Assembly: GCA_049801375.1 (NCBI GenBank)
Contig: JBARKJ010000046.1
Span: 3,204 to 67,203 of the forward strand
Direction of reading: 5' to 3'
From: Nitrospirota bacterium
GTDB lineage: Bacteria > Nitrospirota > JACRHJ01
Length of the DNA: 64,000 nucleotides
Of the stretch, positions 29,500 through 51,253 are shown in pieces. A model generated the notes under the pieces. The model was not told the origin of the DNA. It made no database searches and was given only the letters and a program-made list of their open reading frames with translations. Each line of letters begins with the position of its first letter. Position 1 is the stretch's first letter. Position numbers and translations under genes: made by a program.

Positions 29500-29502
29500 T
29501 TT

Positions 29503-31827: not shown

Positions 31828-31865
31828 AAATCGCCTCCTTGATACTCGCCCTTTTAAAGTGCCAT

Positions 31866-31895: not shown

Positions 31896-31906
31896 CAAAA
31901 AAATTC

Positions 31907-34890: not shown

Positions 34891-34966
34891 GCCGAGGTAG
34901 CTCAGATGGTAGAGCAGAGGCCTGAAAAGCCTCGTGTCCGCAGTTCGATTCTGCGCCTCGGCACCA
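34891..34966 (+). tRNA. tRNA-Phe (anticodon GAA), with encoded 3' CCA
   Basis: GCCGAGGTAGCTCAGATGGTAGAGCAGAGGCCTGAAAAGCCTCGTGTCCGCAGTTCGATTCTGCGCCTCGGCACCA. The 7-bp acceptor stem GCCGAGG/CCTCGGC, D-loop AGCTCAGATGGTAGAGC, anticodon loop CTGAAAA and T-loop GTTCGATTC are all canonical. Confidence 0.9.
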
Positions 34967-36359: not shown

Positions 36360-36429
36360 TACCGCTTCACCTCCCACTACGATTGCAGAGTATGTAATTT
36401 TTACAAAACAGGGGGCACTAAGTCAAGGA

Positions 36430-37329
36430 TTAATCCCAAAAATAATAAAAATTGAACCATTGTTCAGGGTGGCTGCGCACGTATTTTTCAAATACGGCGG
36501 CGATTTTCCTGATGTTTACCCGCAGGTCATGGTCAACGTCCCCGGTAGCCGTCATCTCTATCGGCGGCTCCGCGACAGGATGGTATTTGCCGTCCTCTCC
36601 CATTATTGTAAACGCGGGTATAAGCGGCACACCGGTTTTCATGGCCAAAAGCGCCGGCCCCCTTGGGAACGCCGCCGGCTTCCCGAAGAAATCCACCCTG
36701 ATGCCGGACCTGCTTAAGTCCCGGTCCCCCTGAATCGCCACCAGTTCATTTCTTTTCAGGGCGTTATACGCGCTCAGGGCAAACCCGGCGGGGTTGTCGG
36801 TGGATATTATTTTTATCCCCCTGATATCCTTGTTCCTGTCTAAAAGGCGGTTCTGCTCCTCCGAGTCGTAGAGGTGCTGGACGACGTTTACCTTGAACCC
36901 GAGGTATTTAAGCAGTATCCCGCCCAGTTCCCAATGGCCTATGTGCGCGGTCAAGATTATCGCGCCCTTCCCGCCCTCGACCGCTTTTTTAATATTGTCC
37001 AGGCCTAAAAATTCCGGCACGCGCGAGGCTATCTCGGCGTCGCTCATCCGCTCGAAACGGAAGAGGTCCAGCAGAAATCTCCCGTGGCTGCGCCAGAGCT
37101 TCCGCACCGTCATGAACTTTTCACGCTGCGGGACGTCCGGGCCCAGGACGTGGTCCAGGTTCCTTACCTGCTCGGGGACGATATTTTCGGATTTATAATA
37201 GAATAGCCAGTCGGCGATCCTGTCCCCTATCAAGTTGGCGAGAGGGGTCGGGATATATCTCGCCCCCCAGGAGATCCACCAGTAGATGGAGTGCTTGTCC
37301 AGCCTGTAGGAATGAGTCCCTTTAACCAT
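36430..37329 (-). CDS. Lysophospholipid/lipid A-type acyltransferase (LpxL/HtrB-family paralog inside the PKS cluster)
   Basis: 299 aa. AHIGHWELGG (HX4E acyltransferase motif); C-terminal HPEQWFNFYYFWD resembles the LpxL C-terminus. A second LPLAT copy, distinct from the lpxL at 16490-17443. Confidence 0.7.
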   Translation of the reverse strand: MVKGTHSYRLDKHSIYWWISWGARYIPTPLANLIGDRIADWLFYYKSENIVPEQVRNLDHVLGPDVPQREKFMTVRKLWRSHGRFLLDLFRFERMSDAEIASRVPEFLGLDNIKKAVEGGKGAIILTAHIGHWELGGILLKYLGFKVNVVQHLYDSEEQNRLLDRNKDIRGIKIISTDNPAGFALSAYNALKRNELVAIQGDRDLSRSGIRVDFFGKPAAFPRGPALLAMKTGVPLIPAFTIMGEDGKYHPVAEPPIEMTATGDVDHDLRVNIRKIAAVFEKYVRSHPEQWFNFYYFWD

Positions 37330-38884
37330 CAGCCAGCCCCAGTTTCCTCAAGGCTTCCCTCATCGGCCCCTGAAAAGGCCGGGGCGTCTCGGAGAGAAAC
37401 GCGTCCTTTACGTCGGAAGCTTTCACCGTACCGGATCTTACCGCCCCTTGCACCTTCTTCCGGATAGCCTTGCGCGCAATGGGCCGAAGTAGAGCCGGGA
37501 CTTCCAGCAGGACTTTCTCGAACACCTCCAGGGCGAAATCGTCCCACAGAGCTTCCTTCGGTTGTGAATCGGGACGTCTTCTCGAACTTGAATCCGAATA
37601 CATTCCCTGTAGAATAGCGTTGGCGGGATAGCAGACCCAGTCCGGATGGGTCTTGAAATATTCCCCGGCTATGGAATAAAGGCCGTCTCCCAACCTGTCC
37701 GAGACGTAAAACTTAGGCTCCATAAGCGTATCTTCGGGCGAAATTAATTTCTCATACACGGCGAGGCGGGCAAGGGGCGTGCCCGGATATATCCGCACCC
37801 CGGCGACGGCGAACACTTTATCGGGCTGCAGTTCCTCAAGGGCGTCGAAGGTCTCTTTAAGCGAATCCCCGTCTTCGCCCGGCCCGCCCAGGAGGAGGAA
37901 CACGAGGCTCATCAGCCCTGCCTCCTTCGCGGCCCGGACGGCGTTCACGGCCTCATTCTTTCCGAATTTTTTACCGAGCCTTGGGAGCATCCTGTCGGAC
38001 AGGGAATCCGCGCCCACCTCCACGCTCTCGCATCCCGCCCGCTTCATCTTGTCGAGGAGTCTTGCGTCCAGTCCGACGGGGCTTGCAAGGCATCCCCAGG
38101 AAGCTCTTATCCCGCGCTTAATTATTTCATCGCATACGGCAGCGGCATGGCCGGGCGGATTATTGAATATATTGTCCACGAAATAAAAAGGGGCCGTCAG
38201 TCCGGCGTCTATCGCGCTGCTCATCTCGCGCGCCACTTCCTCGGGGGGCCTCAGGCGCATTTCTCTTCCTTCCAGCCCCGGATAGGTGCAATAGACGCAC
38301 GAGAAGGAACAGCCGCGTTTAGACTGGATACCTACCATGTCGTAATCCTTGGCCGGGAAGAGGTCCCACGCTGGCAGGACGAGCGGAGAAAGGCTTAGCG
38401 GACTTGGCGGGTTCTGGAAATAGGAGCCGCCTTCAAACCGGCAAAGGCCGGGGACCTTGGAAAAAGGCGTCTTGCCGGTAAGCGCGTCCGCGAGCATCGG
38501 CACGGCCATCTCTCCCTCTCCGGCTATCCCGTAATCCGCTCCCAGGTATTCAAGTGCGGCCTCCGGCATGATGGAATATCCCGGCCCCCCCAAAACGACA
38601 GGGGCTTCCGTCTCTCGTTTTATCTGCCCGATGACTTCCCTGTAATCCGGCAGGAGAAAACGGCTGGAAGACTCGATATTCCTTATCGAGACGCCGACGA
38701 AATCCGGAGAGAGAGAACTGATTGCCCGCGTCAGTTCAGTTTCCGGGTCTTCCGCGAAAAGGAGGTCGAGCGCATGCACGTCGTGCCCCGCAAGGCGGAG
38801 CGCTTGAGCGACGAGCGCAAGGCCGAGCGGGGCCGCGGTGAACGGCTCGGTCTCCCTGTTCACGGATACCAACAAAACTTTCAA
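37322..38884 (-). CDS. B12-binding-domain radical SAM enzyme (class B rSAM) with a C-terminal PCP-reductase-like tail
   Basis: 520 aa. N-terminal cobalamin-binding Rossmann fold (MKVLLVSVNRETEPFTAAPLGLALVAQALRLAGHDV...), CSFSCVYC (CxxxCxxC). C-terminal ...PIARKAIRKKVQGAVRSGTVKASDVKDAF resembles the PF08369-type tail. Confidence 0.75.
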   Translation of the reverse strand: MKVLLVSVNRETEPFTAAPLGLALVAQALRLAGHDVHALDLLFAEDPETELTRAISSLSPDFVGVSIRNIESSSRFLLPDYREVIGQIKRETEAPVVLGGPGYSIMPEAALEYLGADYGIAGEGEMAVPMLADALTGKTPFSKVPGLCRFEGGSYFQNPPSPLSLSPLVLPAWDLFPAKDYDMVGIQSKRGCSFSCVYCTYPGLEGREMRLRPPEEVAREMSSAIDAGLTAPFYFVDNIFNNPPGHAAAVCDEIIKRGIRASWGCLASPVGLDARLLDKMKRAGCESVEVGADSLSDRMLPRLGKKFGKNEAVNAVRAAKEAGLMSLVFLLLGGPGEDGDSLKETFDALEELQPDKVFAVAGVRIYPGTPLARLAVYEKLISPEDTLMEPKFYVSDRLGDGLYSIAGEYFKTHPDWVCYPANAILQGMYSDSSSRRRPDSQPKEALWDDFALEVFEKVLLEVPALLRPIARKAIRKKVQGAVRSGTVKASDVKDAFLSETPRPFQGPMREALRKLGLADG

Positions 38885-38907
38885 TCTAGCTAATCCTCCG
38901 TGCGGCC

Positions 38908-39492
38908 CTATCTGCTCAGTTTCTCTACGAACTCCGATATCTTGTCGCCCGTGGCCTTAACCCTGTTTTCCACAAGCGCCCATTTGTCGCCGCCCTGTAG
39001 TCCGGAGGTGCTTTCGTGCTGGAATGTCGCGAGCTCCTTGCCGGTCTTGGCGTCTATGAGTTTGCCTTTCACTGTGATTCCCGCCTGGCCGGCACCCATT
39101 CCCCAGAACATCCTGCTGAATGTGCTCCCCATGTTAACCTGCGAGAACTCGCCCTCGATTATCATGTCCGCCTTGTCGGCGTTCTTGCCGTCCGGATCAA
39201 TGATAAAGGCGGTGACCCTGTCCCCGTTAAGCTCGTTCTTCATAGTCCGGGCTAGCATCTCCTGCCAGTCCTTCAGGTAGTTTTTGAGCTCTCTCTTCTC
39301 TTCGTCGTCCACGTTGTTGTACTCTACGTTATCAGTGGAGAATAGCTTGATCCCGATGGTCCTGTACTTCGAGAGGCTCTCGTCTGTCATTACGTCCTCT
39401 TTGTCGAGGACTCCCGGAGCCGACATCCTGGCTAAGCCATTAATGGGTATCAAAAGTGCGACAACGGCCATTATTAAAAGCATTTTTTTCAT
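38908..39492 (-). CDS. Secreted/lipoprotein-like protein of unknown function
   Basis: The start was set at Met15 (MKKMLLIMAVVALLIPINGLA signal peptide). No catalytic motifs. Gly-rich MFWGMGAGQAGITVKGK segment. Confidence 0.45.
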   Translation of the reverse strand: MKKMLLIMAVVALLIPINGLARMSAPGVLDKEDVMTDESLSKYRTIGIKLFSTDNVEYNNVDDEEKRELKNYLKDWQEMLARTMKNELNGDRVTAFIIDPDGKNADKADMIIEGEFSQVNMGSTFSRMFWGMGAGQAGITVKGKLIDAKTGKELATFQHESTSGLQGGDKWALVENRVKATGDKISEFVEKLSR

Positions 39493-39564
39493 TGTATTCC
39501 TCCTGTTCACAATCGGGTTAATAAATAAAAACACGGGTAACCCCCCTTGCCTCCTTTCGAGAAT

Positions 39565-40926
39565 TTAACTTCCGAAATTCTTTATTATCAGTCTCGCGGC
39601 GGCCCTGCCGGACAGCACCGACGACGCGGCACAGCCGCCGACCGGAAGCACCGTGGAACCTACGCAGTATAATCCCTTGACAGGCGTATTCGTGCCCATC
39701 TTCTCGTAATGCACGCTCTCGGCGACAGGCGAGACGGAACTGGCAAAACCGAAGTTAACCGCATAGTCCATCGGAGTGTAGAGCCTGCCTTCGACCACGC
39801 TCTCCCGGAAGCCCGGAATCAACGAATCCATTTTAGCCATTACTTTCCCGGCCTCGGCCTCGATTGCCTCTCTTGCGATAGCGCCCTTGGGCACGAGGAA
39901 TTTTATGGTACCGGCAAGATGCTCCCCGCCCGTGTCATGCGCCGCGCCGGGGACGGAGATGACGTACATATTATCTTCCGGAAACGAGCCGTCTTTCAGG
40001 GTCTTGAACATCCCGCCGACACTTTTCGGAAACATCGCGTAGAGGTGCACGCCCGGAGTAATCTTCGCGCTCCTCTTAAATACCGTGAACACGCTCGCCA
40101 TGCAAAAACCCTCTTTGTAGTAGCCCAGCGTGTTCAGGAACCCCTGCGGGAAATTCTCCTTGCCCGCGAGAGAGTGAACCGTCTGCAGAATGCCCGTCCC
40201 GCTTATGACACTCTCCGCCTCTATCTCCCTGCCGTCAAGCAGGACGCCCCTCGCCTTGCCGTCGCTTATCAATATTTTTTTCGGCTGCGCGTTATAGACT
40301 ATGCCGCCGCCGTTCTCGCGGATGACGTCGGCCAGAAGTTCGGGCAGTCTCCCCGAACCGGCTCTGGGTATGAATGGCTTATCGTATCCGTACGTCCTGC
40401 CGAAGACAAGGTTAAACCAATGAGACGGCATATTTTCAGGTTCGTTCCCGGAGAAAAACGCGCCGACATTCAATATCTCCCGTAAATTGTCGTTATCGGT
40501 AATCCGGTTTATCACTTCTTTGTAATTGGAGATTTTCCTGTAGCGGTTAAATAATATCTGACCGCCCATACTGAGGCCGAAGCGGCCGATATCCTTTGCC
40601 CCCATCCCCATGCCGCTAAGGTCCTTAGGCGTATGCAGGCCCGGCGGGATGGTCATGGAGGAATCTGAGCAATTCGCCAGCACCTTGAACCATACCGGCT
40701 CCAGCTCTTTTTTCTTCCCCAGCTCCGAGAATACGCCGAGTAATTTTTTGCCGAAATAGTCCGCGCCGATGTCGAAGCGGTGCCCCATAAGCTCCACCGT
40801 CCGGCATCGCCCGCCCGGCTCGGACATCTTCTCCAGCACCAGCACTTTTTTCCCGGCGCGCGAAAGATACGCTCCGGCGGAAAGCCCGCCAAGACCGGCG
40901 CCGATTATTACCGCGTCATATGACAT
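39565..40926 (-). CDS. FAD-dependent oxidoreductase, phytoene desaturase (CrtI) family
   Basis: The start was set at Met23 (MSYDAVIIGAGLGGLSAGAYLSRAGKKVLVLEKMSEPGGRC, the dinucleotide-binding GxGxxG...E motif followed by GG). ~450 aa CrtI-like length. Confidence 0.7.
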   Translation of the reverse strand: MSYDAVIIGAGLGGLSAGAYLSRAGKKVLVLEKMSEPGGRCRTVELMGHRFDIGADYFGKKLLGVFSELGKKKELEPVWFKVLANCSDSSMTIPPGLHTPKDLSGMGMGAKDIGRFGLSMGGQILFNRYRKISNYKEVINRITDNDNLREILNVGAFFSGNEPENMPSHWFNLVFGRTYGYDKPFIPRAGSGRLPELLADVIRENGGGIVYNAQPKKILISDGKARGVLLDGREIEAESVISGTGILQTVHSLAGKENFPQGFLNTLGYYKEGFCMASVFTVFKRSAKITPGVHLYAMFPKSVGGMFKTLKDGSFPEDNMYVISVPGAAHDTGGEHLAGTIKFLVPKGAIAREAIEAEAGKVMAKMDSLIPGFRESVVEGRLYTPMDYAVNFGFASSVSPVAESVHYEKMGTNTPVKGLYCVGSTVLPVGGCAASSVLSGRAAARLIIKNFGS

Positions 40927-40928
40927 TG

Positions 40929-42131
40929 TCAGGCAAACCCCTTTATCGCCTGCACCGTTTTTTTCGCGGTGTAAACGCATGACTCTATGCACGGGAGCCG
41001 GTAGAAATCTCCGGCCAGATATGCGCCCGGAACCTCGGTCTCGATTCCTCGCGTCCTGCTCCCCGGCGGGATGAGCGTAATCGCCGGAGACCAGCCCACC
41101 TTAGGCAGTTCCTTATATTTCCCGAACACGGCCTCGATGTCCGCGTCCGTCCTGTACATGAACATCCCGGCGATGGTCCTGCCGTCAGGCAGGTGTTTCA
41201 TCTCTCCGCCGTGGATGCCGTGGCGGTTTTTATATTTGGAAAAAAGCAGGACGTCGTATTTGCCGTACCGGGGGGTGCGGGACTCGAATATCACTCCGCG
41301 CGTCTTGGTGGATTTCACGTCCACGGTTATTTCCGGCATCACCTTGCCAAGGCTCTCCTGGCCGGTGGCGAACACCACGCAATCCGCCGTCTCCTTCAAA
41401 GGCTCCCCCTTCGGCCCTTTAAGACTTATATCAAAAGTCCCTGATGCATTTTTCTTTACCCTCTCGACCTTATATCCCGTCTTTACAACGCCCGGCATCC
41501 TCCGCACAAGCTCGGCCGCCACCTCCGCCATCCCCTTGTGCGGTACGCGCACGGGCGAATCGCCGTACGCAAACAGGAACAGCCCATGGTCCGCGGCGAT
41601 GTGAGGCGGGTCTATATACCCGAAGCTGGAGAACGGCTGGACGATGTAGTCCAGCATTTTTTGCGAATAACCCATCTCGCGCACGCAGAACTCTTCGAGT
41701 GAAATCGAATGAAGCTCCCGAAGCTTCGGGTCCCAGTTCTCCATCCGGAAGTCCAGGCCCTTTATAAACTTCTTCAGCCGCCCCCACTGCATGTACTCGG
41801 AAAAAGTAAAAAAGCCGCTTCTGAACATGGACCAGGAATCAAGGCCGGTGATTTTATCGCCTATCTGGAGGGCAAATTTTTTAAGCCTGATCAGCTCGTG
41901 CGACACGCCCAGTTCCGCGATCAGTTCCGTGAAGTGCGGGTTCAGGCGTGGCGCGAACATCATCGCGCCTTTATTTATATATACCCCTTCATATTCCAGC
42001 GTCGCGAACCGTCCGCCCGCATCCGGCCTCTTCTCATAGACGACCGGCTGGCAGCCCTCCTTCCGCAGGTAATAGGCCGTCGAAAGCCCGGCGATACCGG
42101 CACCGAAAATCAAGACCTTTTTATTTAACAT
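40929..42131 (-). CDS. FAD-dependent oxidoreductase (amine-oxidase / protoporphyrinogen-oxidase / HpnE-like)
   Basis: 400 aa. KKVLIFGAGIAGLSTAYYLRKEGCQPVVYEKRPDAGGR N-terminal FAD fold; C-terminal ...GAYLAGDFY typical of the amine-oxidase fold. Confidence 0.65.
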   Translation of the reverse strand: MLNKKVLIFGAGIAGLSTAYYLRKEGCQPVVYEKRPDAGGRFATLEYEGVYINKGAMMFAPRLNPHFTELIAELGVSHELIRLKKFALQIGDKITGLDSWSMFRSGFFTFSEYMQWGRLKKFIKGLDFRMENWDPKLRELHSISLEEFCVREMGYSQKMLDYIVQPFSSFGYIDPPHIAADHGLFLFAYGDSPVRVPHKGMAEVAAELVRRMPGVVKTGYKVERVKKNASGTFDISLKGPKGEPLKETADCVVFATGQESLGKVMPEITVDVKSTKTRGVIFESRTPRYGKYDVLLFSKYKNRHGIHGGEMKHLPDGRTIAGMFMYRTDADIEAVFGKYKELPKVGWSPAITLIPPGSRTRGIETEVPGAYLAGDFYRLPCIESCVYTAKKTVQAIKGFA

Positions 42132-42243: not shown

Positions 42244-43155
42244 TTATAAACCAAGTACAGTTGCCAAATTACCGTACAAAATCTTTTGTTTGGAAGGAAG
42301 CGTTAAGGCTAGTGCGTTAACCGCGTCTATCGACGCCTTTATCTCCCGGTTCGCCGGGAAATCGCTCCCCCACAGCACCCTGTCCTCGCCGAATACATCG
42401 GCCGCAAGTTCCAGCATCTTTACGTCCGCCGTGCCGGAAGTGTCCACGTAAACTTTCTTCAACGTCTCCCCCGGTTCCTCACCCATGTCCTTCACTATCC
42501 CCCGGCCAAGGAGCATCTTGTACGTCCTTCCGTATCTGCCGGCAAGAAACGGCATCACGCCAGCAAAGCTCGCGAACACAAGCTTCAGCCGGGGGAACTT
42601 TTTCAGCAGGCCAGAGTCGATAACCCTGGCGAGGCAGAGCGTGGTATCGAACGCATACTGGAACACCGGAGTTATCAGCGGGTGGCGCAGCTTCTCGAAC
42701 CCGAACGGAGTAAGCGTAGTGGGATGAAAAAAGACCGGCGCTCCCCACCCTTCGGCCTTCTCGAAAAAAGGCAGGAACCTATCATCGTCCGGATAATTAC
42801 CGCCGTTGTTCGTCGGCACTGTAAATCCGGCCGCGCCCTGCGCCAATGCCTCTTCCCCCAGAGTGACCATATCGTCAGCCCCTGCCAATGGCACTGACCC
42901 AAGCCATAAAATACGCCCAGTCGACCTCTTTGCTATGTCCTTCACCGCCCCGTTATATACGCGCGCCGCATCCGTTTCCGCAAGGGCGGCCTTGATGTGA
43001 AAATCGGTAGTCGGGTATGATACCAGCGCGCGAGAAACGCCGGCTTCGTCCATTGCACGAAGATGGTTATCAATTCCGCCCCAGGACTCGTTGTAGAACG
43101 AGGCGTGTTTGATTACCTCGTCCGGCAATAGATGGAAATGCGAATCGAATATCAT
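42244..43155 (-). CDS. Amidohydrolase_2 family (ACMSD / hydroxybenzoate (de)carboxylase / 2-pyrone hydrolase-type TIM-barrel metalloenzyme)
   Basis: The start was set at Met17 (MIFDSHFHLL, the metal-binding HxH of the amidohydrolase fold). ...VLWGSDFP (C-terminal Asp ligand). 1-nt shared ATG/TAA overlap with the flavoprotein gene. Confidence 0.65.
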   Translation of the reverse strand: MIFDSHFHLLPDEVIKHASFYNESWGGIDNHLRAMDEAGVSRALVSYPTTDFHIKAALAETDAARVYNGAVKDIAKRSTGRILWLGSVPLAGADDMVTLGEEALAQGAAGFTVPTNNGGNYPDDDRFLPFFEKAEGWGAPVFFHPTTLTPFGFEKLRHPLITPVFQYAFDTTLCLARVIDSGLLKKFPRLKLVFASFAGVMPFLAGRYGRTYKMLLGRGIVKDMGEEPGETLKKVYVDTSGTADVKMLELAADVFGEDRVLWGSDFPANREIKASIDAVNALALTLPSKQKILYGNLATVLGL

Positions 43156-43880
43156 TAATATCTCAGCACTTCTTTTATCGTTTGAAACAGCTCCGAATTC
43201 CACACGTCGTATACTTGTTCGCCCACCGCGCGCGCCATCATTGTTGCTGGTTTATTCTCCTCATAGGACGGCATCGGCTTATCCAGCAGGGTTTTAAAAC
43301 CGGGATGCTCCATCGCGAAACGCTTTCCAACCATGCAGAGGTTCCTCATCTCCGCATCCATCAGGGCGATTCCAGCGCACGCGACCGACGTCGCCGTCAT
43401 TGCTTTCAGGTAATGGAACAGGTAATAGAGCGCGCCCTCCATGCCGAGCGCCGCGCCAACCGCGAGGTTACCCACCGGGGCGCCCTTGAAAGGGTTTTTC
43501 GGGTATGCGGTGATAGTCGTCCCCCATATCTCCGAACGCTCCTGTTCGTGCAGGGGGCGGGTCCTGTGCAAAAGGTTCATGACTATTGCGGGCTGTTGAT
43601 AGGCATAGACCGGGGACGAAAAAATAAACGCGTCCGATTCGGACATTTTATCAAAAATGAGCTTTCCGTCGTCGCCCTTGTCTTCAAGTAGAGGGCAGGT
43701 AAGGCCGCAGAGGCAGCGGTTGCATGCGAGGCATGGCTTCACGTTGTAATTTATCAGGCGGATAACTTCAGACTCGGCGCCTTTTTCCTCGGCGGCCTCA
43801 AGCGCCTTGCGCAGAAAATAATCGCTGGCGGATTTCTGCTTCCCCCTCTTGTGCGTCCCACAGATACCAAGTATCTTCAT
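43155..43880 (-). CDS. Iron-sulfur flavoprotein (Isf) / NADPH-dependent FMN reductase family
   Basis: The start was set at Met72 of the track ORF (MKILGICGTHKRG, the flavodoxin-like FMN phosphate loop). Compact Cys cluster CLACNRCLCGLTC, typical of Isf [4Fe-4S] binding. Confidence 0.7.
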   Translation of the reverse strand: MKILGICGTHKRGKQKSASDYFLRKALEAAEEKGAESEVIRLINYNVKPCLACNRCLCGLTCPLLEDKGDDGKLIFDKMSESDAFIFSSPVYAYQQPAIVMNLLHRTRPLHEQERSEIWGTTITAYPKNPFKGAPVGNLAVGAALGMEGALYYLFHYLKAMTATSVACAGIALMDAEMRNLCMVGKRFAMEHPGFKTLLDKPMPSYEENKPATMMARAVGEQVYDVWNSELFQTIKEVLRY

Positions 43881-44305
43881 ATTCCCTCGATTATTTCTTT
43901 TATCCTCTGCATGTTCTTCTTCGAGTGCTCGTTTATACGGGCTTCCGCCGTTTTGTCGTCCACCGGCGCTTTTTCGTCCATAGAGAAGTCCTGCTCCCAG
44001 GTCATCTCCACCCCGCCGTCTTTCTCTACGTATGTCCAGAGGAGGTCCATGTATTTGAACGGGAACATCGGCTCCTCGCGTTTCGCGGAGCATTTATGCC
44101 CGGGCTTGTCCAGGATGCGACTGGAGCGCCAGGACTTCCCATCTTTGTTGGTCAACTGGAAGGTTATTTTGTTTCCTTCGCGCGAAAGGATCTTCGCGTC
44201 CGAATACTCGTCAAAAAGCTCGGGCCAGCGCTCGATGTCGTTCGTAATGTCGAACACGCTCCCATAAGGCGCGTTTATGAAGATTGAATTCTTGGTGTGT
44301 GCCAT
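43877..44305 (-). CDS. Type II polyketide aromatase/cyclase (SRPBCC, TcmN / WhiE-ORFVI ARO/CYC N-terminal-domain type), stand-alone
   Basis: 142 aa. NSIFINAPYGSVFDITNDIERWPELFDEYSDAKIL...PMFPFKYMDLLWTYVEKDGGVEMTWEQDFSMDEKAPVDD...NMQRIKEIIE follows the TcmN pattern [29 protein letters not shown]...FAYMNLHWTY...[21 protein letters not shown]...NMERIKKIIE (recalled from memory). Confidence 0.7.
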   Translation of the reverse strand: MAHTKNSIFINAPYGSVFDITNDIERWPELFDEYSDAKILSREGNKITFQLTNKDGKSWRSSRILDKPGHKCSAKREEPMFPFKYMDLLWTYVEKDGGVEMTWEQDFSMDEKAPVDDKTAEARINEHSKKNMQRIKEIIEGI

Positions 44306-44314
44306 TATTTTCCT

Positions 44315-45085
44315 TTAGTCCTCGAGTATAGCCACGGCGCGTGCCCATGCCGCGCCCGCGTTTTTTATCTTTACAGGGAAACAGGCGAACTTAAATCCGT
44401 GCGCCCTCGGGAGCGCGCCGAGGTTTGCGAGCCGCTCTATATGACAGTATTCTTTTTTTCTTCCCAGCATGTGTACCGGCCAGAGTTTTGAGCTGTCCGC
44501 GGTCGTTTGATAATCTGCTACCATATTCATAAAAGGCCTGTCCAGGCCCGGCGCGTCGGTCCCGATAGTCCTGATTCCAAGACCGAATAAATATTCCGCC
44601 GCACGGGCATCCAAACCCGCGAATTTAAGAAAATATTCCTTGGTGCCAAAGTACCTGTCCGCCCCGGTCCTGATGAGCGCGATATCGCCCGGTTTCGGCT
44701 TGTAATTTATTTCTTCTAAGCCCCGCCGCACATCATCCGGTTTTATTTCTCCGCCGGGCGGCAGACTTCTCATGTCAATTACAAAACCGTCCCCATAGCA
44801 CCATTCAAGGGGGACCTCGTCTATCTTCTTCGCCGGCCGTCCTTCCGATTCCGGCCCGAAATGCCACGGCGCGTCCACGTGCGTCCCGCAGTGAACCGAC
44901 GCCTGGACGGTCTCATGTGACAGGAACATCCCGCCGGGAAAAGTATCGCCGCCAATTTTCTTCTCTCCCGGAAATTTTTCCCCTACCCTCTCCGCGCCCT
45001 CCTCATGGCCAATCCGGGTCACCTGTACCGGAAAAGGTTCAGGCGCCAAGTCGTCTATAGGGGTGCTTAGGTCGATTATTTTCAA
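44315..45085 (-). CDS. Cyclase-family protein (PF04199; kynurenine-formamidase-like metal-dependent hydrolase / putative polyketide cyclase)
   Basis: 256 aa. ...SVHCGTHVDAPWHF (His-rich metal site, HxGTHxDxPxH) is diagnostic of the cyclase family. Confidence 0.75.
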   Translation of the reverse strand: MKIIDLSTPIDDLAPEPFPVQVTRIGHEEGAERVGEKFPGEKKIGGDTFPGGMFLSHETVQASVHCGTHVDAPWHFGPESEGRPAKKIDEVPLEWCYGDGFVIDMRSLPPGGEIKPDDVRRGLEEINYKPKPGDIALIRTGADRYFGTKEYFLKFAGLDARAAEYLFGLGIRTIGTDAPGLDRPFMNMVADYQTTADSSKLWPVHMLGRKKEYCHIERLANLGALPRAHGFKFACFPVKIKNAGAAWARAVAILED

Positions 45086-45318
45086 GACCTGGCCGCCACG
45101 GTTAGAAAATAGTCGATTATCTCGCGGACCGTAATCACGCCGTTTATCACGCCGTCGGGGATTTTGGCCGAGAATTCTTTTTCCAGCGCAACCATCAGTT
45201 CCACCATCTCAGTCGAGTCAATCCCGAGACCGCTTTTCAAAGTCGCGTCAGGGCGAAGTTCATTTTTGCCTATGCCTATTTCCGCGAAAACTTTTTCTAC
45301 CCTCTCTTCTACCGGCAT
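45082..45318 (-). CDS. Acyl carrier protein (PKS ACP)
   Basis: 78 aa. GIDSTEMVEL (phosphopantetheine attachment Ser in the DSxE/xxE motif). ATGA overlap with the cyclase gene. Confidence 0.8.
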   Translation of the reverse strand: MPVEERVEKVFAEIGIGKNELRPDATLKSGLGIDSTEMVELMVALEKEFSAKIPDGVINGVITVREIIDYFLTVAARS

Positions 45319-45328: not shown

Positions 45329-46537
45329 TTACCTAGGCTTTCCGATTAAAAGGCAGGCGTTTACCCCGCCCCGCCCGATGGAATTTATAATGATATCCTG
45401 CTGATCGAACTTCTTTGTTCCGCCGCCGTTAAAGAAATCAAATTCCGGATCAAGCACTTTGAGGGTCGGCGTCTCACCTCTACCAAGCGCCATGCAGGCA
45501 AGTGCCGTGTCGAGCGCGCCGGACGCCCCTAATAAATTCCCAGTCTGCGGCTTCGGCGAATAAACCGGCAGTTCACTTGCCCTGTTTCCGAATATTTTTA
45601 AAAGGGCCCTTCCCTCGGATAAATCTGCTTCCTTCCCCGCATTCGCGGATGGGATAGCCATCCCGATTTCGGATGGAGAGATAGCGGCCTGCCGCATCGC
45701 GAATCCGATGGCGCGGGCCATGCCTTCGCCTGAGGGGTCCGGCATAGTCGGATGGACACCGTCGCTGGTAAACCCGAAACCTTTTACTTCCGCGTATATT
45801 CTGGCCCCCCTCGCGGCTGCCTTTTCCATATCTTCGATGACGAGTACGGCCGCCCCTTCGCCGATTATATATCCGTCCCGGCTCTTACTGAAGGGCCTGT
45901 AGCTCCCGGTCTGGCTGAGCTCCCCGGATGTATTGCAACACAGAAGCGCGTAAGGCGATACCGGGGCTTCGGTGCCGCCAGCTAACATCACGTCCGCCTT
46001 GTCCGTTTGAATGGCTCGCGCGGCGTAAGCGATAGCTAGATGCGAACTTGCTATGTCGGAAATTATGGTCTTGGAAAAACCTTTTATGCCGTAGAAGATG
46101 GATATCTGGCCCTGCGGCGCCGCCGGGAACCATGCGGTTGCCTGGTACGGGCTGACTTCCCGAAGGCCGTGCTTCCAGAGGTCCCGCAGTTCCTCCTCCG
46201 CAAAAGCCCAGCCGCCCAGGGCGTTGCCGAAGGCTATCCCGACACGGTCTTTGTCCTCGGCGTCAAGGTTAATCCCGCTGTCTTTAATCGCCCCGTCGGT
46301 GGCTGAGAGCGCCATGTGCGAGAACCTGTCCAGCTTCTTAAGTAGCCGCTTGGAAAATATCTCTTCTCCGCCAAGATTATTTACCAACCCCGCGTGACGG
46401 GACGGATAGCGCGAAGCGTCAAAGCGGCTGATCTCGCCCGTGAAGCCATCGCCCGAGGAGAGCCTGTCGAATAATTCTTCAGGCGAATTGCCAGCCGGGC
46501 TCACTACCCCGATGCCTGTTATGACCGCGCGTCTCAT
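45329..46537 (-). CDS. Ketosynthase beta / chain-length-factor-like KS homolog lacking the catalytic Cys and second His
   Basis: The start was set at Met38 (MRRAVITGIGVVSPAG, ATGA overlap with the KS-alpha stop). In the active-site region ...FSKTIISDIASSHLAIAYAARAIQTDKADVMLAGGTE the Cys of T-A-C-x-(T/S) is replaced (Ile or Asp). One His is retained (VHPTMPD) and the second His region is divergent (MAIPSANAGKE). Confidence 0.8.
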   Translation of the reverse strand: MRRAVITGIGVVSPAGNSPEELFDRLSSGDGFTGEISRFDASRYPSRHAGLVNNLGGEEIFSKRLLKKLDRFSHMALSATDGAIKDSGINLDAEDKDRVGIAFGNALGGWAFAEEELRDLWKHGLREVSPYQATAWFPAAPQGQISIFYGIKGFSKTIISDIASSHLAIAYAARAIQTDKADVMLAGGTEAPVSPYALLCCNTSGELSQTGSYRPFSKSRDGYIIGEGAAVLVIEDMEKAAARGARIYAEVKGFGFTSDGVHPTMPDPSGEGMARAIGFAMRQAAISPSEIGMAIPSANAGKEADLSEGRALLKIFGNRASELPVYSPKPQTGNLLGASGALDTALACMALGRGETPTLKVLDPEFDFFNGGGTKKFDQQDIIINSIGRGGVNACLLIGKPR

Positions 46538-47790
46538 GCCCGCCTCAAGACCATTGACGAATGGATCCCGGAGAACCCGCTGCTCGTTTTTATCACCACG
46601 TCCACCTTTTTCTCCCGCGCCCAGTTCGGCACATAATCTAAGTCGCATGCAGGGTCGGGCTCACGGTAATTCACCGTCGGCGGGATAATGCCCCGCTCCA
46701 TCACCATCGCCGAAAGCGCTAGCTCGATGGCGTTCGCCGCGGAAAGCGGATGTCCTATCATGGACTTGATGGAACTGACGGGCACCCGAAAGGCATGTTC
46801 CTTAAGCGCGGTCTTTATCGCGTTCGTCTCGAAGACATCGTTCTGTTCCGTGGAGCTTCCATGAGAGCTTATGTAATCAACGTCATCGGCGTTGACCCGC
46901 GCCTCGTCCATAGCCATTTTTATAGACCGGGCAAGGGCCTCGCCGTCCGGCGGTAAATCCGTCATGTGATACGCATTGGATGTGGAGCCGAAACCTGCTA
47001 TCTCCGCATATATCTTCGCACCGCGCTTCGCCGCGTGCCCGTATTCCTCCAGTACCAGTATCCCCGCGCCCTCGGCCAGGACAAACCCGTTCCTCGTCCT
47101 GTCGAAAGGACGAGACGCCGCCCCGGGGTCGTCATTATGCTTCGAGAGCGCCTTTATTACATCGAATGCGGCAAGGGCTATCGGCGTAATCGGGGCCTCG
47201 GACGCGCCGGTTATCATCATGTCGCATAAGCCGAGTTGGATATTTTCATACGCATAGGCCACCGAATCCGTCCCGGCCGTGCAGCCGGTGGATATGACGC
47301 ACGCACCGCCTTTTAAGCCATAGCGCGCGGCTATGAAGTTGGCGGGAGAATTGAATATGGACGCATCATACAGATACGGCGACGCGAGGCCCGGGTCAAT
47401 CGGCTCATGCCCGTTCCGGGTCACGCGCAGGAACTCCTCCTCCATCCATTTCGTCCCGCATATGGCGTTAGCCAGCGCCACTCCGCACCGCTCACGATCC
47501 AGGCCGCCGAATTCCAGCCCGGCGTCCTCCACTGCCAGCTTCGCCCCGGCCAGGGCGAACTGCAGATAGCGGTCCATCCCCGAGGCCTCTTCAGACGAGA
47601 TGCCGAAGACGGCGGGGTTGAACCCCTTCACTTCCGCCGCGACCTTCGAAAGGAACTCGGAGGTATCGAATGCGGTAATAAGCCCGGTCTGCGTCCGCGC
47701 GTTTATCATGGAATCCCAGAAGGCGTCTTTACCGATGCCTCCCGGCGCGATAACGCCCAGGCCTGTTATGACGACCCTGCGGAGATTCAA
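46534..47790 (-). CDS. Ketosynthase alpha (FabF/KAS II-like, catalytically competent)
   Basis: 418 aa. ISTGCTAGTDSVAYA (active-site Cys), AYHMTDLP (His1), YISSHGSST (His2), C-terminal NSFGFSGIHSSMVL-like end. Confidence 0.85.
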   Translation of the reverse strand: MNLRRVVITGLGVIAPGGIGKDAFWDSMINARTQTGLITAFDTSEFLSKVAAEVKGFNPAVFGISSEEASGMDRYLQFALAGAKLAVEDAGLEFGGLDRERCGVALANAICGTKWMEEEFLRVTRNGHEPIDPGLASPYLYDASIFNSPANFIAARYGLKGGACVISTGCTAGTDSVAYAYENIQLGLCDMMITGASEAPITPIALAAFDVIKALSKHNDDPGAASRPFDRTRNGFVLAEGAGILVLEEYGHAAKRGAKIYAEIAGFGSTSNAYHMTDLPPDGEALARSIKMAMDEARVNADDVDYISSHGSSTEQNDVFETNAIKTALKEHAFRVPVSSIKSMIGHPLSAANAIELALSAMVMERGIIPPTVNYREPDPACDLDYVPNWAREKKVDVVIKTSSGFSGIHSSMVLRRA

Positions 47791-48056
47791 CCCTCCACCC
47801 TCCTGACCTTGAACCGCACATACCCGCCGTCCGGGCAGGTTACGGTGTTGATGGAATTCGGGTCTTCCATGAAGGGGTACTTCGCACCGAAGTTCAGGGC
47901 GAAGAGCACCGGGAACAGCGTATGGTATGCCGCGCCGCAGAAACCTTCCGGCGTCCGAAGTCCCAGGACCTCCACCTCCTGGCCCCGCTCGTATTTATAA
48001 AAACACGGCCCGGAAACTTCCTCGACCGATATAACCATTTTTTTGGGATTTGCCAT
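47787..48056 (-). CDS. Small Cys-containing protein, paralog B (~89 aa; resembles TIGR04076-type proteins)
   Basis: The start was set at Met21 (MANPKKMVISVEEVSGPCFYKYERGQEVEV...PEGFCGAAYHTLFP...FGAKYPF...VTCPDGGYVRFKVRR). ATGA overlap with the KS-alpha gene. Confidence 0.5.
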   Translation of the reverse strand: MANPKKMVISVEEVSGPCFYKYERGQEVEVLGLRTPEGFCGAAYHTLFPVLFALNFGAKYPFMEDPNSINTVTCPDGGYVRFKVRRVEG

Positions 48057-48319
48057 TATAATTTCCTCACCTTGAACGTCAGTTTCCCACCGTCCGGGCA
48101 TGTCGTCCTGACGCAACCTTCCCCATCCTTGAAAGGGAATTCCGCGCCGAATGTCCAGGCATAAATAATCGGGAATAGCGAATGATACGCCCCGGCGCAG
48201 AAGCCGTCGGGCGGCGTCACGAAGTCCTTTACCTCAAAAGAATCACCCGCTTTATATCCCTTGAAACATTCTTTTTGAAGACTGTCCACCGTCAGCAGAA
48301 AACCCGGAAACTCCATCAT
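48056..48319 (-). CDS. Small Cys-containing protein, paralog A (87 aa; resembles TIGR04076-type proteins)
   Basis: ...KECFKGYKAGDSFEV...PDGFCAGAYHSLFP...FGAEFPF...TTCPDGGKLTFKVRK. The same architecture as paralog B (~45% identity by eye). TAATG stop/start overlap. Confidence 0.5.
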   Translation of the reverse strand: MMEFPGFLLTVDSLQKECFKGYKAGDSFEVKDFVTPPDGFCAGAYHSLFPIIYAWTFGAEFPFKDGEGCVRTTCPDGGKLTFKVRKL

Positions 48320-49314
48320 AAGCCTAACCTCGTTAGCATCTCTTCCGTTGATAGAAATTGATTTGTTTTTTCGATTTCCCTGACCAGCTCCGCCGCTTTT
48401 GAATTCAACTTTGCCTCCCGCCCCATCTCAAGCGCCACCCTCGCGACTTCGCCGTTTAAATAATCCACCTCCGACGAGCGGCCCCGCATGACGCTCTGCA
48501 GGACGGAGCCTGGAAGGGGGAGGTGGGAAAGGCCCCGCATGATATTGCCATATATCTGCGCCCCCACTTCCTCCGGGGCGTATAGCAGCGATTTCAACTT
48601 CTCCAGAGGCAGGTTCGGGAGGTCGGCCATCTCCATCCCTCCCGCTTCAAAAACCTCCCATGCTTCGCGCATCATCGACAGCCCCAATATGCATATCCTT
48701 TTATCCGAAAACGTCTCCTGCAGGTTCTTCCCCAGTACGCAGGCAAGCGCGTTATTCAGGTTCAGTACGAGCTTCGCGCGGTGCATGGCCTGGATGTTGC
48801 CGGCTACGCGCACTTCTAAAGACCCGGCCATGATACTCTTCGCCTTATCGACAATGCCGCCGCCGTCCGGGCCGAACGCCTTGCCTATAACCAGGCCGCC
48901 GGGAAAGTTATACGTTACATGCCCCGGCTCTTTATATGTCGCCCCGAACATAACGACCGAAGAAATGATTCGCTCGCTGCCAAGGATGCTTCCGGCTATC
49001 TCGTCGGCCATCAGGCCGTTCTGCATCGTCAGCGCCGGAAAATCACCCATGCCTGCAATCTGAGTACACGCCGTTTCCAGGTCCTGCGTCTTTACCGCGA
49101 GGAGGGCCAGGTCGGGAATGAACTCCAGCGACCTTGCGGCATATATGACAAAGTTATTCCTTGCCGAAATGCCGTCAAGCGACAGGCCTTCGCGGTTAAT
49201 CGCCCGGACCTGGCGCGGGTCGCGGCTGACAAGGGTAACAGCGTGTCCCTTCTCATGGAGCAGCGCCCCCGCAACACACCCGATAGCCCCCGCGCCGATT
49301 ACCGCTATTTTCAT
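48316..49314 (-). CDS. Ketopantoate-reductase-family NAD(P)H oxidoreductase (ApbA/PanE); candidate polyketide ketoreductase
   Basis: 332 aa. MKIAVIGAGAIGCVAGALL Rossmann N-terminus; C-terminal ApbA_C-like domain. Confidence 0.75.
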   Translation of the reverse strand: MKIAVIGAGAIGCVAGALLHEKGHAVTLVSRDPRQVRAINREGLSLDGISARNNFVIYAARSLEFIPDLALLAVKTQDLETACTQIAGMGDFPALTMQNGLMADEIAGSILGSERIISSVVMFGATYKEPGHVTYNFPGGLVIGKAFGPDGGGIVDKAKSIMAGSLEVRVAGNIQAMHRAKLVLNLNNALACVLGKNLQETFSDKRICILGLSMMREAWEVFEAGGMEMADLPNLPLEKLKSLLYAPEEVGAQIYGNIMRGLSHLPLPGSVLQSVMRGRSSEVDYLNGEVARVALEMGREAKLNSKAAELVREIEKTNQFLSTEEMLTRLGL

Positions 49315-49387: not shown

Positions 49388-51253
49388 TTAATGAGGTTTT
49401 CCTGTTTTAACGTCCCAGCCGTGGCAGGCGTAATATTCGTCCAGCATCCCGTCGTACAAATCCCGGTCGAGCTTCATCGTTCGAGATTCGTCGTCCAGCC
49501 CGTCCTGCCATATGAGCGGCTCGAAATACCTCATGGGCGGGTAATCGTCTTTCCGCCCCACGCCCTCGTGGCAAATGAACCTGCGCTCCACATCCGTTAT
49601 AGCGTGTCCCGCCGCGAATACCTCTTCCGGCGCCATCTCCATTCCGCTGCCCTTCCTGATGAGGTCGCTGAATACATTGAAGCCGAATACGCCCGGCTCC
49701 GGCAAGGTGTGGAAGGCCAGGAGCTTGCACAGCCCCAGCGCGTCGAAGAGCGCTAGATAACTTTCCCACCACCAGACCACCCGGCCCTTGCCGCCATATT
49801 TCAGCGGGTCCGGCTCCACCGGCCCGCCATAAATTCCCGCCAGAAATTCCTTATCGAATTCGAACGCCTCCCAGGGACAGCGGCTTCGGAGGTGGTCTGC
49901 ACCGCGGGTTGCGGTGGAGACTCCAAGGGCGAACGCCTTGATGAACCGGAGGTCTACCGGGTCCGACTGCGGGAGGCCCTTCACCCAGATCATGCGTCCG
50001 GCCGAGTCCTTTCCGAATTGAGCCGACGCCGCCGATGCGCCGTTAGCAAGGACGTCTCCAAACCCTCTGCGGTATGCAATATCCTCCAGAAGCAGGGCGA
50101 CCGTCTCCGGGTCGTTCCAGTCCAGCTTCATCCCGCCGGTCTCGGCGTCTCCGATAAAACCTTCTTTATACAATTCTATTGCCCACGCTATTATGTTGCC
50201 GGCGGAGCTTGCGTCTATGCCGAGGCGGTTAAGCCTGTCGTTCAACATGAGTACCGCTTCGGAGGAATTTATCCCAAGCACCGGCCCCATATGTCCCATG
50301 ATGCCGTATTCCGGACCTTCGCCTGTCAGCCCGGCATGTTTTCCTTCAGTTATTTTATATGAATGCCTGCACGCCACCGCGCAGTGCCTGCATCCGCGTT
50401 TGCCCGAATAATATCGTGCTTCCAGCGTCTCCGGGCCAAGGTCCCCGGGCTCTTTCATTTTCGTCGAGAGGCCGTTATATGCCCGGCCCATCTCGATGTT
50501 CGTATTTATTACGTTATATAGATGCGCCGTCCCGAAACGCGCAAGGTCCTGCGTAAGGAATTCCGTCCGAAGCTTCGAATTTATTTCGTGGGTAAGGGCA
50601 GCAAAACCGTCCGGGTCGTGCGGCTGGACCTTCCCGCCGTCGAGCGCCACAACCGCCTTCAAATTTTTTGCCCCCATCAGGCAGCCCATCCCGGTGCGGC
50701 CCGCGGCATTCTTTCTGCCGTGCATAACGCATGCGAAGCGGACGAGGTTCTCACCGGCCGGGCCTATGCACGCGATATGGGCCTTCACGCCATGCTCCTC
50801 TTTTATGACCTTTTGCGCTTCGACTGTGTCCATGCCCCAGACGTGCGAGGCTTCTTTTATTTCCGCAGCCGTCCCGTCGCCAATTTTTTTTATAAGAAGA
50901 TAAACGGGTCTATCCGACTTACCTGTGATGACCAGATGCCTGACGCCCGTGGAGGCTAAAGCGCACCCGAAATCCCCTCCGATATTCGCGTCTCCTAAAA
51001 GACCGCTCTCCGGGCTCTTGCCGGTGATGGTCAGTCTGGCGGATGACGGCCCCGGCATCCCGGTTAGCAGGCCCGCGCCGAATATCAACGGGTTCTCCGG
51101 GCTTAGAGGGTCCAGGCCTTTCTTTGTATTTTCAAAGAGCAGCGCGCTGTTTATCCCCCGCCCGCCGATGTAATTGCGAAGGAGGCTTTCCGGAAGGTCC
51201 TTTACTTCGGAGGCCCCGCCGCTTAGATCTATATATAAGATTTTATGGTTCAT
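49388..51253 (-). CDS. Aldehyde:ferredoxin oxidoreductase (tungsten/molybdopterin AOR family)
   Basis: 621 aa. N-terminal KILYIDLSGGASEVKDLPESLLRNYIGGRGINS (AOR_N); internal CRHC-type [4Fe-4S] Cys ligands (GCRHCAVACRH). Confidence 0.85.
   Translation of the reverse strand: MNHKILYIDLSGGASEVKDLPESLLRNYIGGRGINSALLFENTKKGLDPLSPENPLIFGAGLLTGMPGPSSARLTITGKSPESGLLGDANIGGDFGCALASTGVRHLVITGKSDRPVYLLIKKIGDGTAAEIKEASHVWGMDTVEAQKVIKEEHGVKAHIACIGPAGENLVRFACVMHGRKNAAGRTGMGCLMGAKNLKAVVALDGGKVQPHDPDGFAALTHEINSKLRTEFLTQDLARFGTAHLYNVINTNIEMGRAYNGLSTKMKEPGDLGPETLEARYYSGKRGCRHCAVACRHSYKITEGKHAGLTGEGPEYGIMGHMGPVLGINSSEAVLMLNDRLNRLGIDASSAGNIIAWAIELYKEGFIGDAETGGMKLDWNDPETVALLLEDIAYRRGFGDVLANGASAASAQFGKDSAGRMIWVKGLPQSDPVDLRFIKAFALGVSTATRGADHLRSRCPWEAFEFDKEFLAGIYGGPVEPDPLKYGGKGRVVWWWESYLALFDALGLCKLLAFHTLPEPGVFGFNVFSDLIRKGSGMEMAPEEVFAAGHAITDVERRFICHEGVGRKDDYPPMRYFEPLIWQDGLDDESRTMKLDRDLYDGMLDEYYACHGWDVKTGKPH

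Follow-up and report, generated by a model that had tools for sequence, protein, structure and literature searches.

To our knowledge, type II aromatic polyketide synthases (PKSs) are known almost entirely from aerobic actinomycetes, and the characterised pathways from anaerobes are few (clostrubin, wexrubicin, and the dendrubins). In the aerobic actinomycete systems, oxygenases perform most of the tailoring. Outside the actinomycetes, a ketosynthase (KS) with its chain-length factor (CLF) plus the acyl carrier protein (ACP), accompanied by TcmN-type and OxyN-type cyclases, represents the ancestral layout of the clusters (PMC7693217). Pairs of KS and CLF from Omnitrophica, Planctomycetes, Nitrospirae, and delta-Proteobacteria appear in a catalogue of 2023, with the cluster content left unanalysed (PMC10132072). 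The locus described here lies on a stretch of 64,000 nucleotides from an anaerobic Nitrospirota bacterium (contig JBARKJ010000046.1; the whole stretch is referred to as the window). Four neighboring genes at 42244-45085 encode a PF04199 cyclase, a stand-alone TcmN-type aromatase/cyclase (ARO/CYC) of the SRPBCC fold family, an iron–sulfur flavoprotein candidate, and an Amidohydro_2 protein (Table 1). These four genes probably constitute the post-assembly part of an orphan type II aromatic PKS operon, following the five-step scheme given below.

Domain calls for the four proteins were judged against Pfam gathering thresholds. All four open reading frames are found on the minus strand, and each product scores above threshold for the family named in the preliminary description of this DNA (PF04199, PF03364/PF10604, PF03358, and PF04909). 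The motifs quoted there (NDIERWPELF, YMDLLWTY, GGVEMTWEQDF, and CLACNRCLCGLTC) are likewise present in the translations. The SRPBCC protein passes both polyketide-cyclase models, PF03364 with 40.2 bits (cutoff 23.4, E = 4.9e-10) and PF10604 with 38.5 bits (cutoff 27.4, E = 1.8e-9). Its residues 2-140 align with the crystal-structure sequences of the TcmN ARO/CYC at 47% identity over 139 residues (2rez, E = 1.6e-33), and 3tl1 (“Polyketide cyclase”) is matched at E = 1.2e-30. The window protein shares the TcmN residues W28, F32, E34, Y35, W65, S67, R69, R82, F88, M91, W95, W108, Q110, and N136, all of which are near-invariant among 77 homologues. Eleven of them, which we take to be the pocket and catalytic residues of TcmN (Tyr35, Arg69, Trp28, Trp65, Ser67, Arg82, Met91, Trp95, Trp108, Gln110, and Asn136), are conserved in 75-77 of the 77 homologues. 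The suggestion that this protein tracks the TcmN aromatase/cyclase is therefore borne out by identity, E-value, and retained pocket residues. The loop that bears W63 in TcmN is five residues shorter in the window protein, and W63 itself is deleted.

A minimal type II PKS (KS-alpha, KS-beta, and ACP) is encoded on the same strand immediately upstream of the cyclases. Among the solved structures in the PDB, KS-alpha is closest to the actinorhodin KS (1tqy_A, E = 4.8e-119, 401 bits) and AntD (6smo_B, E = 1.8e-115, 389 bits), with FabF behind both (349 bits), which supports an aromatic PKS. The KS-alpha triad C170, H275, and H310 is conserved in the orthologues. In KS-beta, the active-site Cys is replaced by Ile163 in the window and by Arg or Lys in the orthologues, and the second His is lost; because of these losses, the protein is, as judged by its active-site residues, an inactive partner of KS-alpha that is CLF-like in role. 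Of the possible product classes, an aromatic type II polyketide is best supported, by the TcmN-like protein, the KS-alpha nearest to the actinorhodin KS and AntD, the dead KS-beta, and the second cyclase beside the ACP. The proposal of an aromatic polyketide rather than a fatty-acid-like chain is supported by the TcmN match and by the affinity of KS-alpha to the actinorhodin KS.

The PF04199 cyclase scores 108.3 bits in Pfam (cutoff 23.1, E = 4.8e-31). Its HxGTHxDxPxH motif is formed by H65, H69, D71, and H75, which are invariant wherever covered in 14 orthologous loci, as are D177, H205, and E217. Its sole solved relatives are kynurenine formamidase and isatin hydrolase, which are matched weakly (E about 1e-4). 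The gene directly follows that of the ACP in the window and lies between the ACP and SRPBCC genes in other loci. From this position beside the ACP and from the cluster architecture described in PMC7693217, the protein is a candidate polyketide cyclase of the OxyN/DpsY/MtmY class.

The amidohydrolase scores 85.9 bits for PF04909 (cutoff 26.4, E = 5.5e-24). As a single sequence, it retrieves LigW, ACMSD, and IDCase as its best PDB matches at about 1e-15. A profile built from 16 orthologues reaches LigW at 1e-36 (129.8 bits), ACMSD at 1e-32 (116 bits), gamma-resorcylate decarboxylase (gamma-RSD) at 1e-27 (100 bits), and 2,3-dihydroxybenzoate (2,3-DHB) decarboxylase at 1e-22. The metal ligands H6 and H8 (HxH), H144, and D265 are invariant in the 16 orthologues. 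R207 is equally invariant and aligns with the Arg of LigW; from this alignment we infer that it binds the substrate carboxylate, and it is matched to the Arg of ACMSD by analogy. The aromatic acid released from a type II PKS carries a carboxylate ortho to a phenol, which is the substrate pattern of LigW, gamma-RSD, the 2,3-DHB decarboxylase, and the fungal 6-methylsalicylate decarboxylases. Since the released acid would match this pattern, the protein is, with moderate confidence, a candidate terminal decarboxylase of an o-hydroxyaryl carboxylate. A terminal decarboxylation that has no assigned enzyme has been proposed for the dendrubins, which are made by an anaerobe, and for the pyxidicyclines (PMC7693217).

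The flavoprotein scores 69.5 bits for PF03358 FMN_red (cutoff 24, E = 3e-19). In 23 homologues, the most distant of which shares 36% identity, its cysteines C50, C53, C56, and C62 (CX2CX2CX5C) do not vary; they fit what we take to be the Isf pattern, CX2CX2CX4-7C. The AF2 model (pLDDT 90.7) takes on a flavodoxin-like fold, and its best solved fold relatives are the flavone ene-reductase FLR (7d38), RosB, SsuE, and azo- and quinone reductases. With the profile of the flavoprotein, FLR is matched at E = 5e-16 over residues 1-107. The protein is a probable reductase with flavin mononucleotide (FMN) and a [4Fe-4S] cluster. In FLR, which comes from gut bacteria, the planar flavone is stacked on the FMN (PMC7862272). 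The quinone and azo reductases likewise accommodate planar aromatics above this cofactor.

The association of these genes was followed through 18 loci, seven of which were found via the SRPBCC protein (L001-L005, L089, and L090). Metagenomic contigs that encode a homologue of the SRPBCC protein carry the annotations Syntrophaceae, Deltaproteobacteria, Omnitrophota, and Bacillota. An Amidohydro_2 orthologue, 31-90% identical along its full length, is encoded in all seven SRPBCC-found loci. With the amidohydrolase alignment as seed, a scan of genomes yielded at least 10 loci at 34% identity or more from Omnitrophota and Planctomycetota metagenome-assembled genomes (MAGs). The SRPBCC gene is present in 10/10 of the amidohydrolase-found loci listed, and KS-alpha, KS-beta, ACP, and PF04199 genes are there too where the contig allows. 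Among the matches listed, the link to a PKS is lost below about 30% identity. A Streptomyces nogalater match (L027, 27% identity) was ruled out as a PKS-linked orthologue, as no KS or cyclase is encoded within 10 kb. Altogether, the TcmN-like protein and the Amidohydro_2 orthologue are paired in 18/18 loci. The constant core consists of the PCP_red/DUF2621-like protein, the ApbA-like reductase (upstream of the PKS in most loci), the TIGR04076 pair, KS-alpha, KS-beta, ACP, the PF04199 cyclase, the TcmN-like protein, and the Amidohydro_2 protein. It recurs in metagenome genomes from five or more phyla, anaerobic and for the most part uncultured (Nitrospirota, Desulfobacterota, Omnitrophota, Planctomycetota, and Bacillota). 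The common Omnitrophota-type variant adds an MFS exporter, an SDR ketoreductase, its own B12-radical SAM protein, and a 139-aa protein encoded between the SRPBCC and amidohydrolase genes, all four of which are absent from the window. The window proteins are also found as exact sequence matches in an NCBI Nitrospirota MAG (MGC2423747-50), in which the four are annotated in generic terms only (SRPBCC family, cyclase family, flavodoxin family, and amidohydrolase family). Because the proteins are annotated in this MAG and the gene order recurs in many independent contigs, the gene set is far beyond chance.

In the window, the four genes end a coupled run of ten genes that extends from 49314 to 42244 and starts with the ApbA-like gene, the two TIGR04076 genes, KS-alpha, KS-beta, and ACP. 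The junction sequences show a TTGA overlap between the ACP stop and the PF04199 cyclase start, a 9-nt gap with a GGA-rich ribosome-binding site between the PF04199 cyclase and SRPBCC genes, an ATGA overlap between the SRPBCC and flavoprotein genes, and a TAATG overlap between the flavoprotein and amidohydrolase genes. Further upstream, the overlaps are ATGA (ApbA/TIGR04076a), TAATG (TIGR04076a/b), TTGA (TIGR04076b/KS-alpha), and ATGA (KS-alpha/KS-beta). Two start codons were corrected from homologue alignments: the flavoprotein starts at 43880 (MKILGICG, common to all homologues) instead of 44093 in the mechanical open reading frame list, and the amidohydrolase starts at the ATG at 43155 (MIFDSH, common to all orthologues) instead of the mechanical GTG at 43203. 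Such start/stop overlaps point to co-expression of the genes. An operon end by a terminator after the amidohydrolase gene was rejected, as a terminator scan of the 112-nt gap on its 3′ side gave no terminator-like site on the coding strand. The translational coupling of the four genes claimed in the preliminary description thus stands in its TTGA, ATGA, and TAATG overlaps, but the run is longer than the four genes it named. Moreover, the four genes are not one conserved unit, because the flavoprotein is lineage-specific (3/18 loci).

The proposed pathway would start with the assembly of an unreduced poly-beta-ketone on the ACP by KS-alpha and the dead KS-beta, as suggested by homology and by the active-site residues. 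In the second step, the TcmN-type SRPBCC protein would enclose the chain and catalyze aldol cyclisation and aromatisation of the first ring, for which the 47% identity and the conserved pocket argue. The regiochemistry of TcmN itself is C9-C14, followed by C7-C16. Subsequently, the metal-dependent PF04199 cyclase may close a later ring, by analogy with the OxyN/DpsY class. After release, the Amidohydro_2 protein would remove the terminal carboxylate ortho to the phenol as CO2; this step is proposed because of the nearest solved relatives, the invariant metal ligands and Arg, and the constant presence of the protein in the cluster family. In the last step, the flavoprotein would perform an oxygen-independent two-electron reduction of a planar quinone, enone, or anthrone with electrons that probably come from ferredoxin. 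This reduction is the weakest step of the pathway and is suggested by the fold relatives of the modelled protein only. Further processing is probable by the U32-family protein, the aldehyde:ferredoxin oxidoreductase (AFOR), the CrtI-like flavoproteins, the B12-radical SAM protein, and the LpxL-like acyltransferase, and the final compound is possibly membrane-associated in the Nitrospirota lineage.

Several observations weigh against this pathway, and they touch the flavoprotein, the amidohydrolase, and the nature of the product. Full-text searches of the literature gave no product or activity for any member of the cluster family. An SDR ketoreductase is encoded in most sister clusters and not in the window, and chain reduction may differ between the variants.

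For the flavoprotein, PDB searches by sequence, profile, and fold retrieved no solved Isf, and there was no NCBIfam match. Canonical Isf membership was therefore dropped and the label “Isf-like motif” kept; of the earlier “Isf-type” designation, the invariant Cys motif survives, whereas the nearest solved relative is FLR. The gene is confined to the window, the close relative L001, and L002, where it takes another position. The flavoprotein may serve the downstream lipid module instead, or it may have a general electron-transfer or oxidative-stress role like the Methanosarcina Isf and simply be inserted here. In an Omnitrophica MAG (L086, 10001-11697) and a metagenome contig (L088, 10001-11644), both without a PKS, the gene of a flavoprotein relative (46-49% identity) lies directly upstream of one for an LpxL-like acyltransferase, which suggests a recurrent flavoprotein-acyltransferase pairing. 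The window also encodes an LpxL-like acyltransferase and a “lipid biosynthesis” B12-radical SAM protein downstream. Because the flavoprotein distribution is patchy and its relatives are acyltransferase-linked, the lipid-module assignment is a serious rival. Yet the flavoprotein gene is wedged between the cyclase and amidohydrolase genes by its ATGA and TAATG overlaps, a 60%-identical orthologue is retained elsewhere within the L002 PKS cluster, and the nearest solved relative reduces a planar polyketide-like aromatic. A function outside polyketide tailoring is a tentative alternative that ranks below the reductive step proposed above.

The amidohydrolase could instead act as a hydrolase, hydratase, or lactonase and serve to release or trim the product, for example by hydrolysis of an ACP-thioester, a pyrone, or a C-C bond. 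AntI shortens a chain by C-C hydrolysis with a different fold. The Amidohydro_2 family includes the lactonase LigI, the hydratase LigJ, the C-C hydrolase LigY, and the oxygenase PtmU3, and the orthologue profile also scores LigJ (1e-19, 74 bits), PtmU3 (6e-18, 68 bits), and LigY (1e-16, 64 bits). In addition, the His that ACMSD and LigW conserve within their G-H-(M/G)-G motif, presumably equivalent to ACMSD His228, is replaced by Ser196 in the window protein; the position is variable in the clade, with 7 Ser, 6 His, and 3 Tyr among the 16 orthologues. No thioesterase gene is found in the clusters of the Nitrospirota and Omnitrophota types. Hydrolysis or product release has to be considered as a role because of the missing His and the significant hydratase and hydrolase scores, but it is unlikely: about ten solved relatives head the ranking, all of them decarboxylases, and lie about 45-55 bits above the hydratase and hydrolases, an invariant Arg aligns with the one that binds the carboxylate in ACMSD and LigW, and terminal decarboxylation is an expected step of the related anaerobe pathways. 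The protein groups with the (hetero)aromatic decarboxylases and not with the ring-opening hydrolases (LigW at 1e-36 against LigY at 1e-16), in agreement with its initial placement.

KS-beta lacks the CLF-type Gln that primes actinomycete type II PKSs and scores better with FabF, at 242 bits, than with the actinorhodin CLF, at 182 bits. This FabF-like character, the shortened pocket loop without W63, the co-oriented CrtI-like, LpxL-like, and TIGR04072 genes that follow with no terminator between, and the MMPL exporter added in L002 would fit a small mono- or bicyclic phenolic head group (resorcinol- or naphthol-type) that downstream enzymes attach to a membrane lipid, but such a product is improbable, as two distinct conserved cyclases normally imply at least two or three rings and the lipid module is missing from most sister clusters, where an MFS exporter is found instead.

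Table 1. Features of the PKS locus in the window, in order of transcription, and the corresponding regions of related loci.
Feature	Position	Strand	Basis or remark
PadR regulator	53526-54086	minus	Pfam
U32-family protein	52123-53529	minus	Pfam
173-aa protein without family match	51608-52129	minus	
PCP_red/DUF2621-like protein, 81 aa	51366-51611	minus	Sub-threshold Pfam, 26 bits
Aldehyde:ferredoxin oxidoreductase (AFOR)	49388-51253	minus	Pfam
ApbA/PanE-family NAD(P)H reductase	48316-49314	minus	PF02558, PF08546; first gene of coupled run
TIGR04076 tandem pair	48056-48319 (a), 47787-48056 (b)	minus	NCBIfam
KS-alpha, intact Cys170-His275-His310 triad	46534-47790	minus	Solved relatives and triad
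KS-beta, chain-length-factor-like, predicted catalytically dead	45329-46537	minus	Active-site residues
Acyl carrier protein, 78 aa, GIDS motif	45082-45318	minus	PF00550, 2.7e-9
PF04199 metal-dependent cyclase, candidate for the “OxyN” class of the type II PKS literature	44315-45085	minus	256 aa, TTG start
Stand-alone TcmN-type aromatase/cyclase (SRPBCC)	43877-44305	minus	142 aa
FMN_red-fold flavoprotein, CX2CX2CX5C motif, Isf-like	43155-43880	minus	241 aa
Amidohydro_2 (ACMSD-related) protein, candidate non-oxidative decarboxylase	42244-43155	minus	303 aa
Downstream lipid-type module	34974-42131	minus	Same strand as amidohydrolase
TIGR04076 region in other loci	L002 5828-6388; L004 3995-4582; L005 5824-6408; L003 8618-9127		
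PCP_red/DUF2621-like protein in other loci	L002 4517-4768; L004 2718-2987; L005 4552-4827; L089 10572-10766		

Upstream of KS-alpha, the first gene of the coupled run encodes an ApbA-like reductase with 147.9 bits for TIGR00745 (NCBIfam, cutoff 141.35). It is followed by the TIGR04076 pair (44.3 and 51.5 bits, cutoff 33), two proteins of about 88 aa each with conserved Cys18, Cys40, and His45 and a C-P-D-G-G motif. The pair or its fused form is encoded upstream of KS-alpha in every family locus that has this region on the contig. In most loci, the two proteins are fused (about 190 aa), and in the Bacillota MAG L003 the ACP carries them as an N-terminal fusion. An AF2 model (pLDDT 88) gave no significant fold match in the PDB, and none at E<0.3. 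The TIGR04076 proteins may be an unrecognised PKS subunit.

The genes from PadR to AFOR lie upstream of the coupled run and are found in the same order in L001. A promoter-like site with 11/12 matches and a TG extension is located at 54174-54145 upstream of PadR. The U32-family protein, which adjoins PadR at the head of the cluster, shows a weak NCBIfam match to TrhP (2.9e-5); its gene is present in L001 and absent from the other loci. The U32 family includes the oxygen-independent hydroxylases UbiU/UbiV, TrhP, and RlhA, and the window protein is a candidate anaerobic aromatic hydroxylase for the polyketide. The 173-aa protein has no Pfam, NCBIfam, or PDB match and one homologue (34% identity), which is encoded beside the ApbA-like gene in the Omnitrophota locus L012. 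At first sight its N-terminus is START-like, but a second SRPBCC cyclase was rejected at an hhalign probability of 0.4% against the SRPBCC alignment.

The PCP_red/DUF2621-like protein is conserved in the cluster family and is usually encoded directly upstream of the ApbA-like gene. The U32-family protein (tblastn E = 0.005) and the B12-radical SAM protein (4.5e-7), as measured on the L001 orthologues, also carry PCP_red-like sequence at their C-terminal ends, which may represent a docking or adaptor domain that these proteins share. Among the FMN_red relatives of the Isf-like protein, P0202-P0206 contain a bona fide PCP_red domain as a fusion. Direct homology between the small protein and this fused C-terminal domain was dropped, as BLAST was not significant; the link holds at the level of the Pfam domain only, which is sub-threshold in the window.

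Downstream of the amidohydrolase, the lipid-type module encodes two CrtI/amine-oxidase-like flavoproteins, a DUF4410 lipoprotein, a B12-radical SAM protein, an LpxL-like acyltransferase, and a radical SAM/SPASM protein. The B12-radical SAM protein reaches 339.6 bits for TIGR04072 (“lipid biosynthesis B12-binding/radical SAM protein”), below the cutoff of 360. An orthologue of the amine-oxidase-like protein AO1 also follows the amidohydrolase in L002. The minus-strand run ends at a plus-strand tRNA (34891-34963), which was the only hit of an Rfam search of the cluster for riboswitches or other RNA elements.

Outer-membrane and lipopolysaccharide genes are found at 27929-31923 on the minus strand and encode LpxD, OmpH/Skp, and BamA with five POTRA domains. 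BamA, OmpH, LpxD, AFOR, and several radical SAM genes mark the host, as far as its gene content tells, as a diderm anaerobe. In Omnitrophota-type loci, a PNP_UDP_1/IF-2B/class II aldolase trio flanks the PKS (L004 18361-20441, L005 14719-16660, and L090 14017-16757), sometimes with an SCP2 domain and an aldehyde dehydrogenase. It resembles a 5′-deoxyadenosine/methylthioadenosine salvage shunt and may recycle the by-product of the radical SAM enzymes.

Taken by themselves, the domain calls are at the level of routine annotation. The locus provides an enzyme candidate for the terminal decarboxylation, the step that lacks an assigned enzyme in dendrubin and pyxidicycline biosynthesis. It also points to oxygen-independent tailoring by the Fe-S flavoprotein, the radical SAM enzymes, and the U32-family protein, and it flags the TIGR04076 and PCP_red-like proteins as two constant accessory proteins. 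A speculative reading, to which little probability is given, would join these elements: the constant core would be an ancient, cross-phylum, and strictly oxygen-independent route to a decarboxylated aromatic polyketide, and TIGR04076 a new ACP-associated PKS subunit. In the Nitrospirota, enzymes replacing oxygenases (the U32-family hydroxylase candidate, the Fe-S flavoprotein, the B12-radical SAM protein, and AFOR) and the LpxL-like acyltransferase would then lead to a membrane-anchored, redox-active quinone or phenol lipid. The ten-gene core of about 7 kb is suited to direct synthesis and expression and offers a way into the chemistry and early evolution of aromatic polyketides. Its cross-phylum conservation, the candidate for an unassigned step, and its small size make it a good experimental target.

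Among described proteins, the N-terminal ARO/CYC of TcmN from Streptomyces glaucescens (2rer, 2res, 2rez, and 3tvq) and WhiE (3tvr) share the SRPBCC fold family with the window protein, and the TcmN ARO/CYC is likewise encoded beside a minimal PKS. The window protein differs in being a stand-alone protein of 142 aa without the TcmN methyltransferase domain and in its host, an anaerobic Nitrospirota bacterium. The amidohydrolase shares the Amidohydro_2 TIM barrel, the metal ligands, and the Arg with the ACMSD family (LigW, ACMSD, gamma-RSD, the 2,3-DHB and salicylate decarboxylases, and IDCase), to which the fungal 6-methylsalicylate decarboxylase PatG also belongs as a non-oxidative decarboxylase. 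It differs in its identity of about 22-25% to any solved member and in its location in a type II PKS operon. The flavoprotein resembles Isf from Methanosarcina thermophila and FLR in the flavodoxin-like FMN_red fold and the compact N-terminal Cys motif; FLR carries CxxCxxC at the same place, and the C-terminal extension of the window protein (70 residues) is not like the one in FLR.

At the level of clusters, full-text searches of the literature gave one amidohydrolase encoded in a type II PKS cluster, RslH, which is non-essential in the rishirilide cluster (PMC7221717). A characterised homologous cluster was sought in the same literature and none was found; RslH and the catalogue entry (PMC10132072) are the only points of contact. 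The den (dendrubins, Dendrosporobacter), ant (AQ-256, Photorhabdus), pcy (pyxidicyclines), clr, and wex (clostridia) clusters have the same KS-CLF-ACP with two cyclase types and non-actinomycete, in several cases anaerobic, hosts; the window KS-alpha is close to AntD of Photorhabdus. In den, ant, and pcy, the TcmN-type cyclase is a TcmN-TcmN didomain, whereas the window order is OxyN-type followed by monodomain TcmN-type. The present family consistently has an Amidohydro_2 protein, a TIGR04076 pair, and an ApbA-like reductase, none of which has been reported for den, with its two cyclases and one oxidoreductase. The assertion that the gene combination has no counterpart in classical clusters accordingly holds for the amidohydrolase and the flavoprotein but not for the cyclase pair beside KS-CLF-ACP (PMC7693217). 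That pair is already known from the described systems; what this locus adds to them is a constantly present decarboxylase candidate, along with the TIGR04076 pair and a set of anaerobic tailoring genes.

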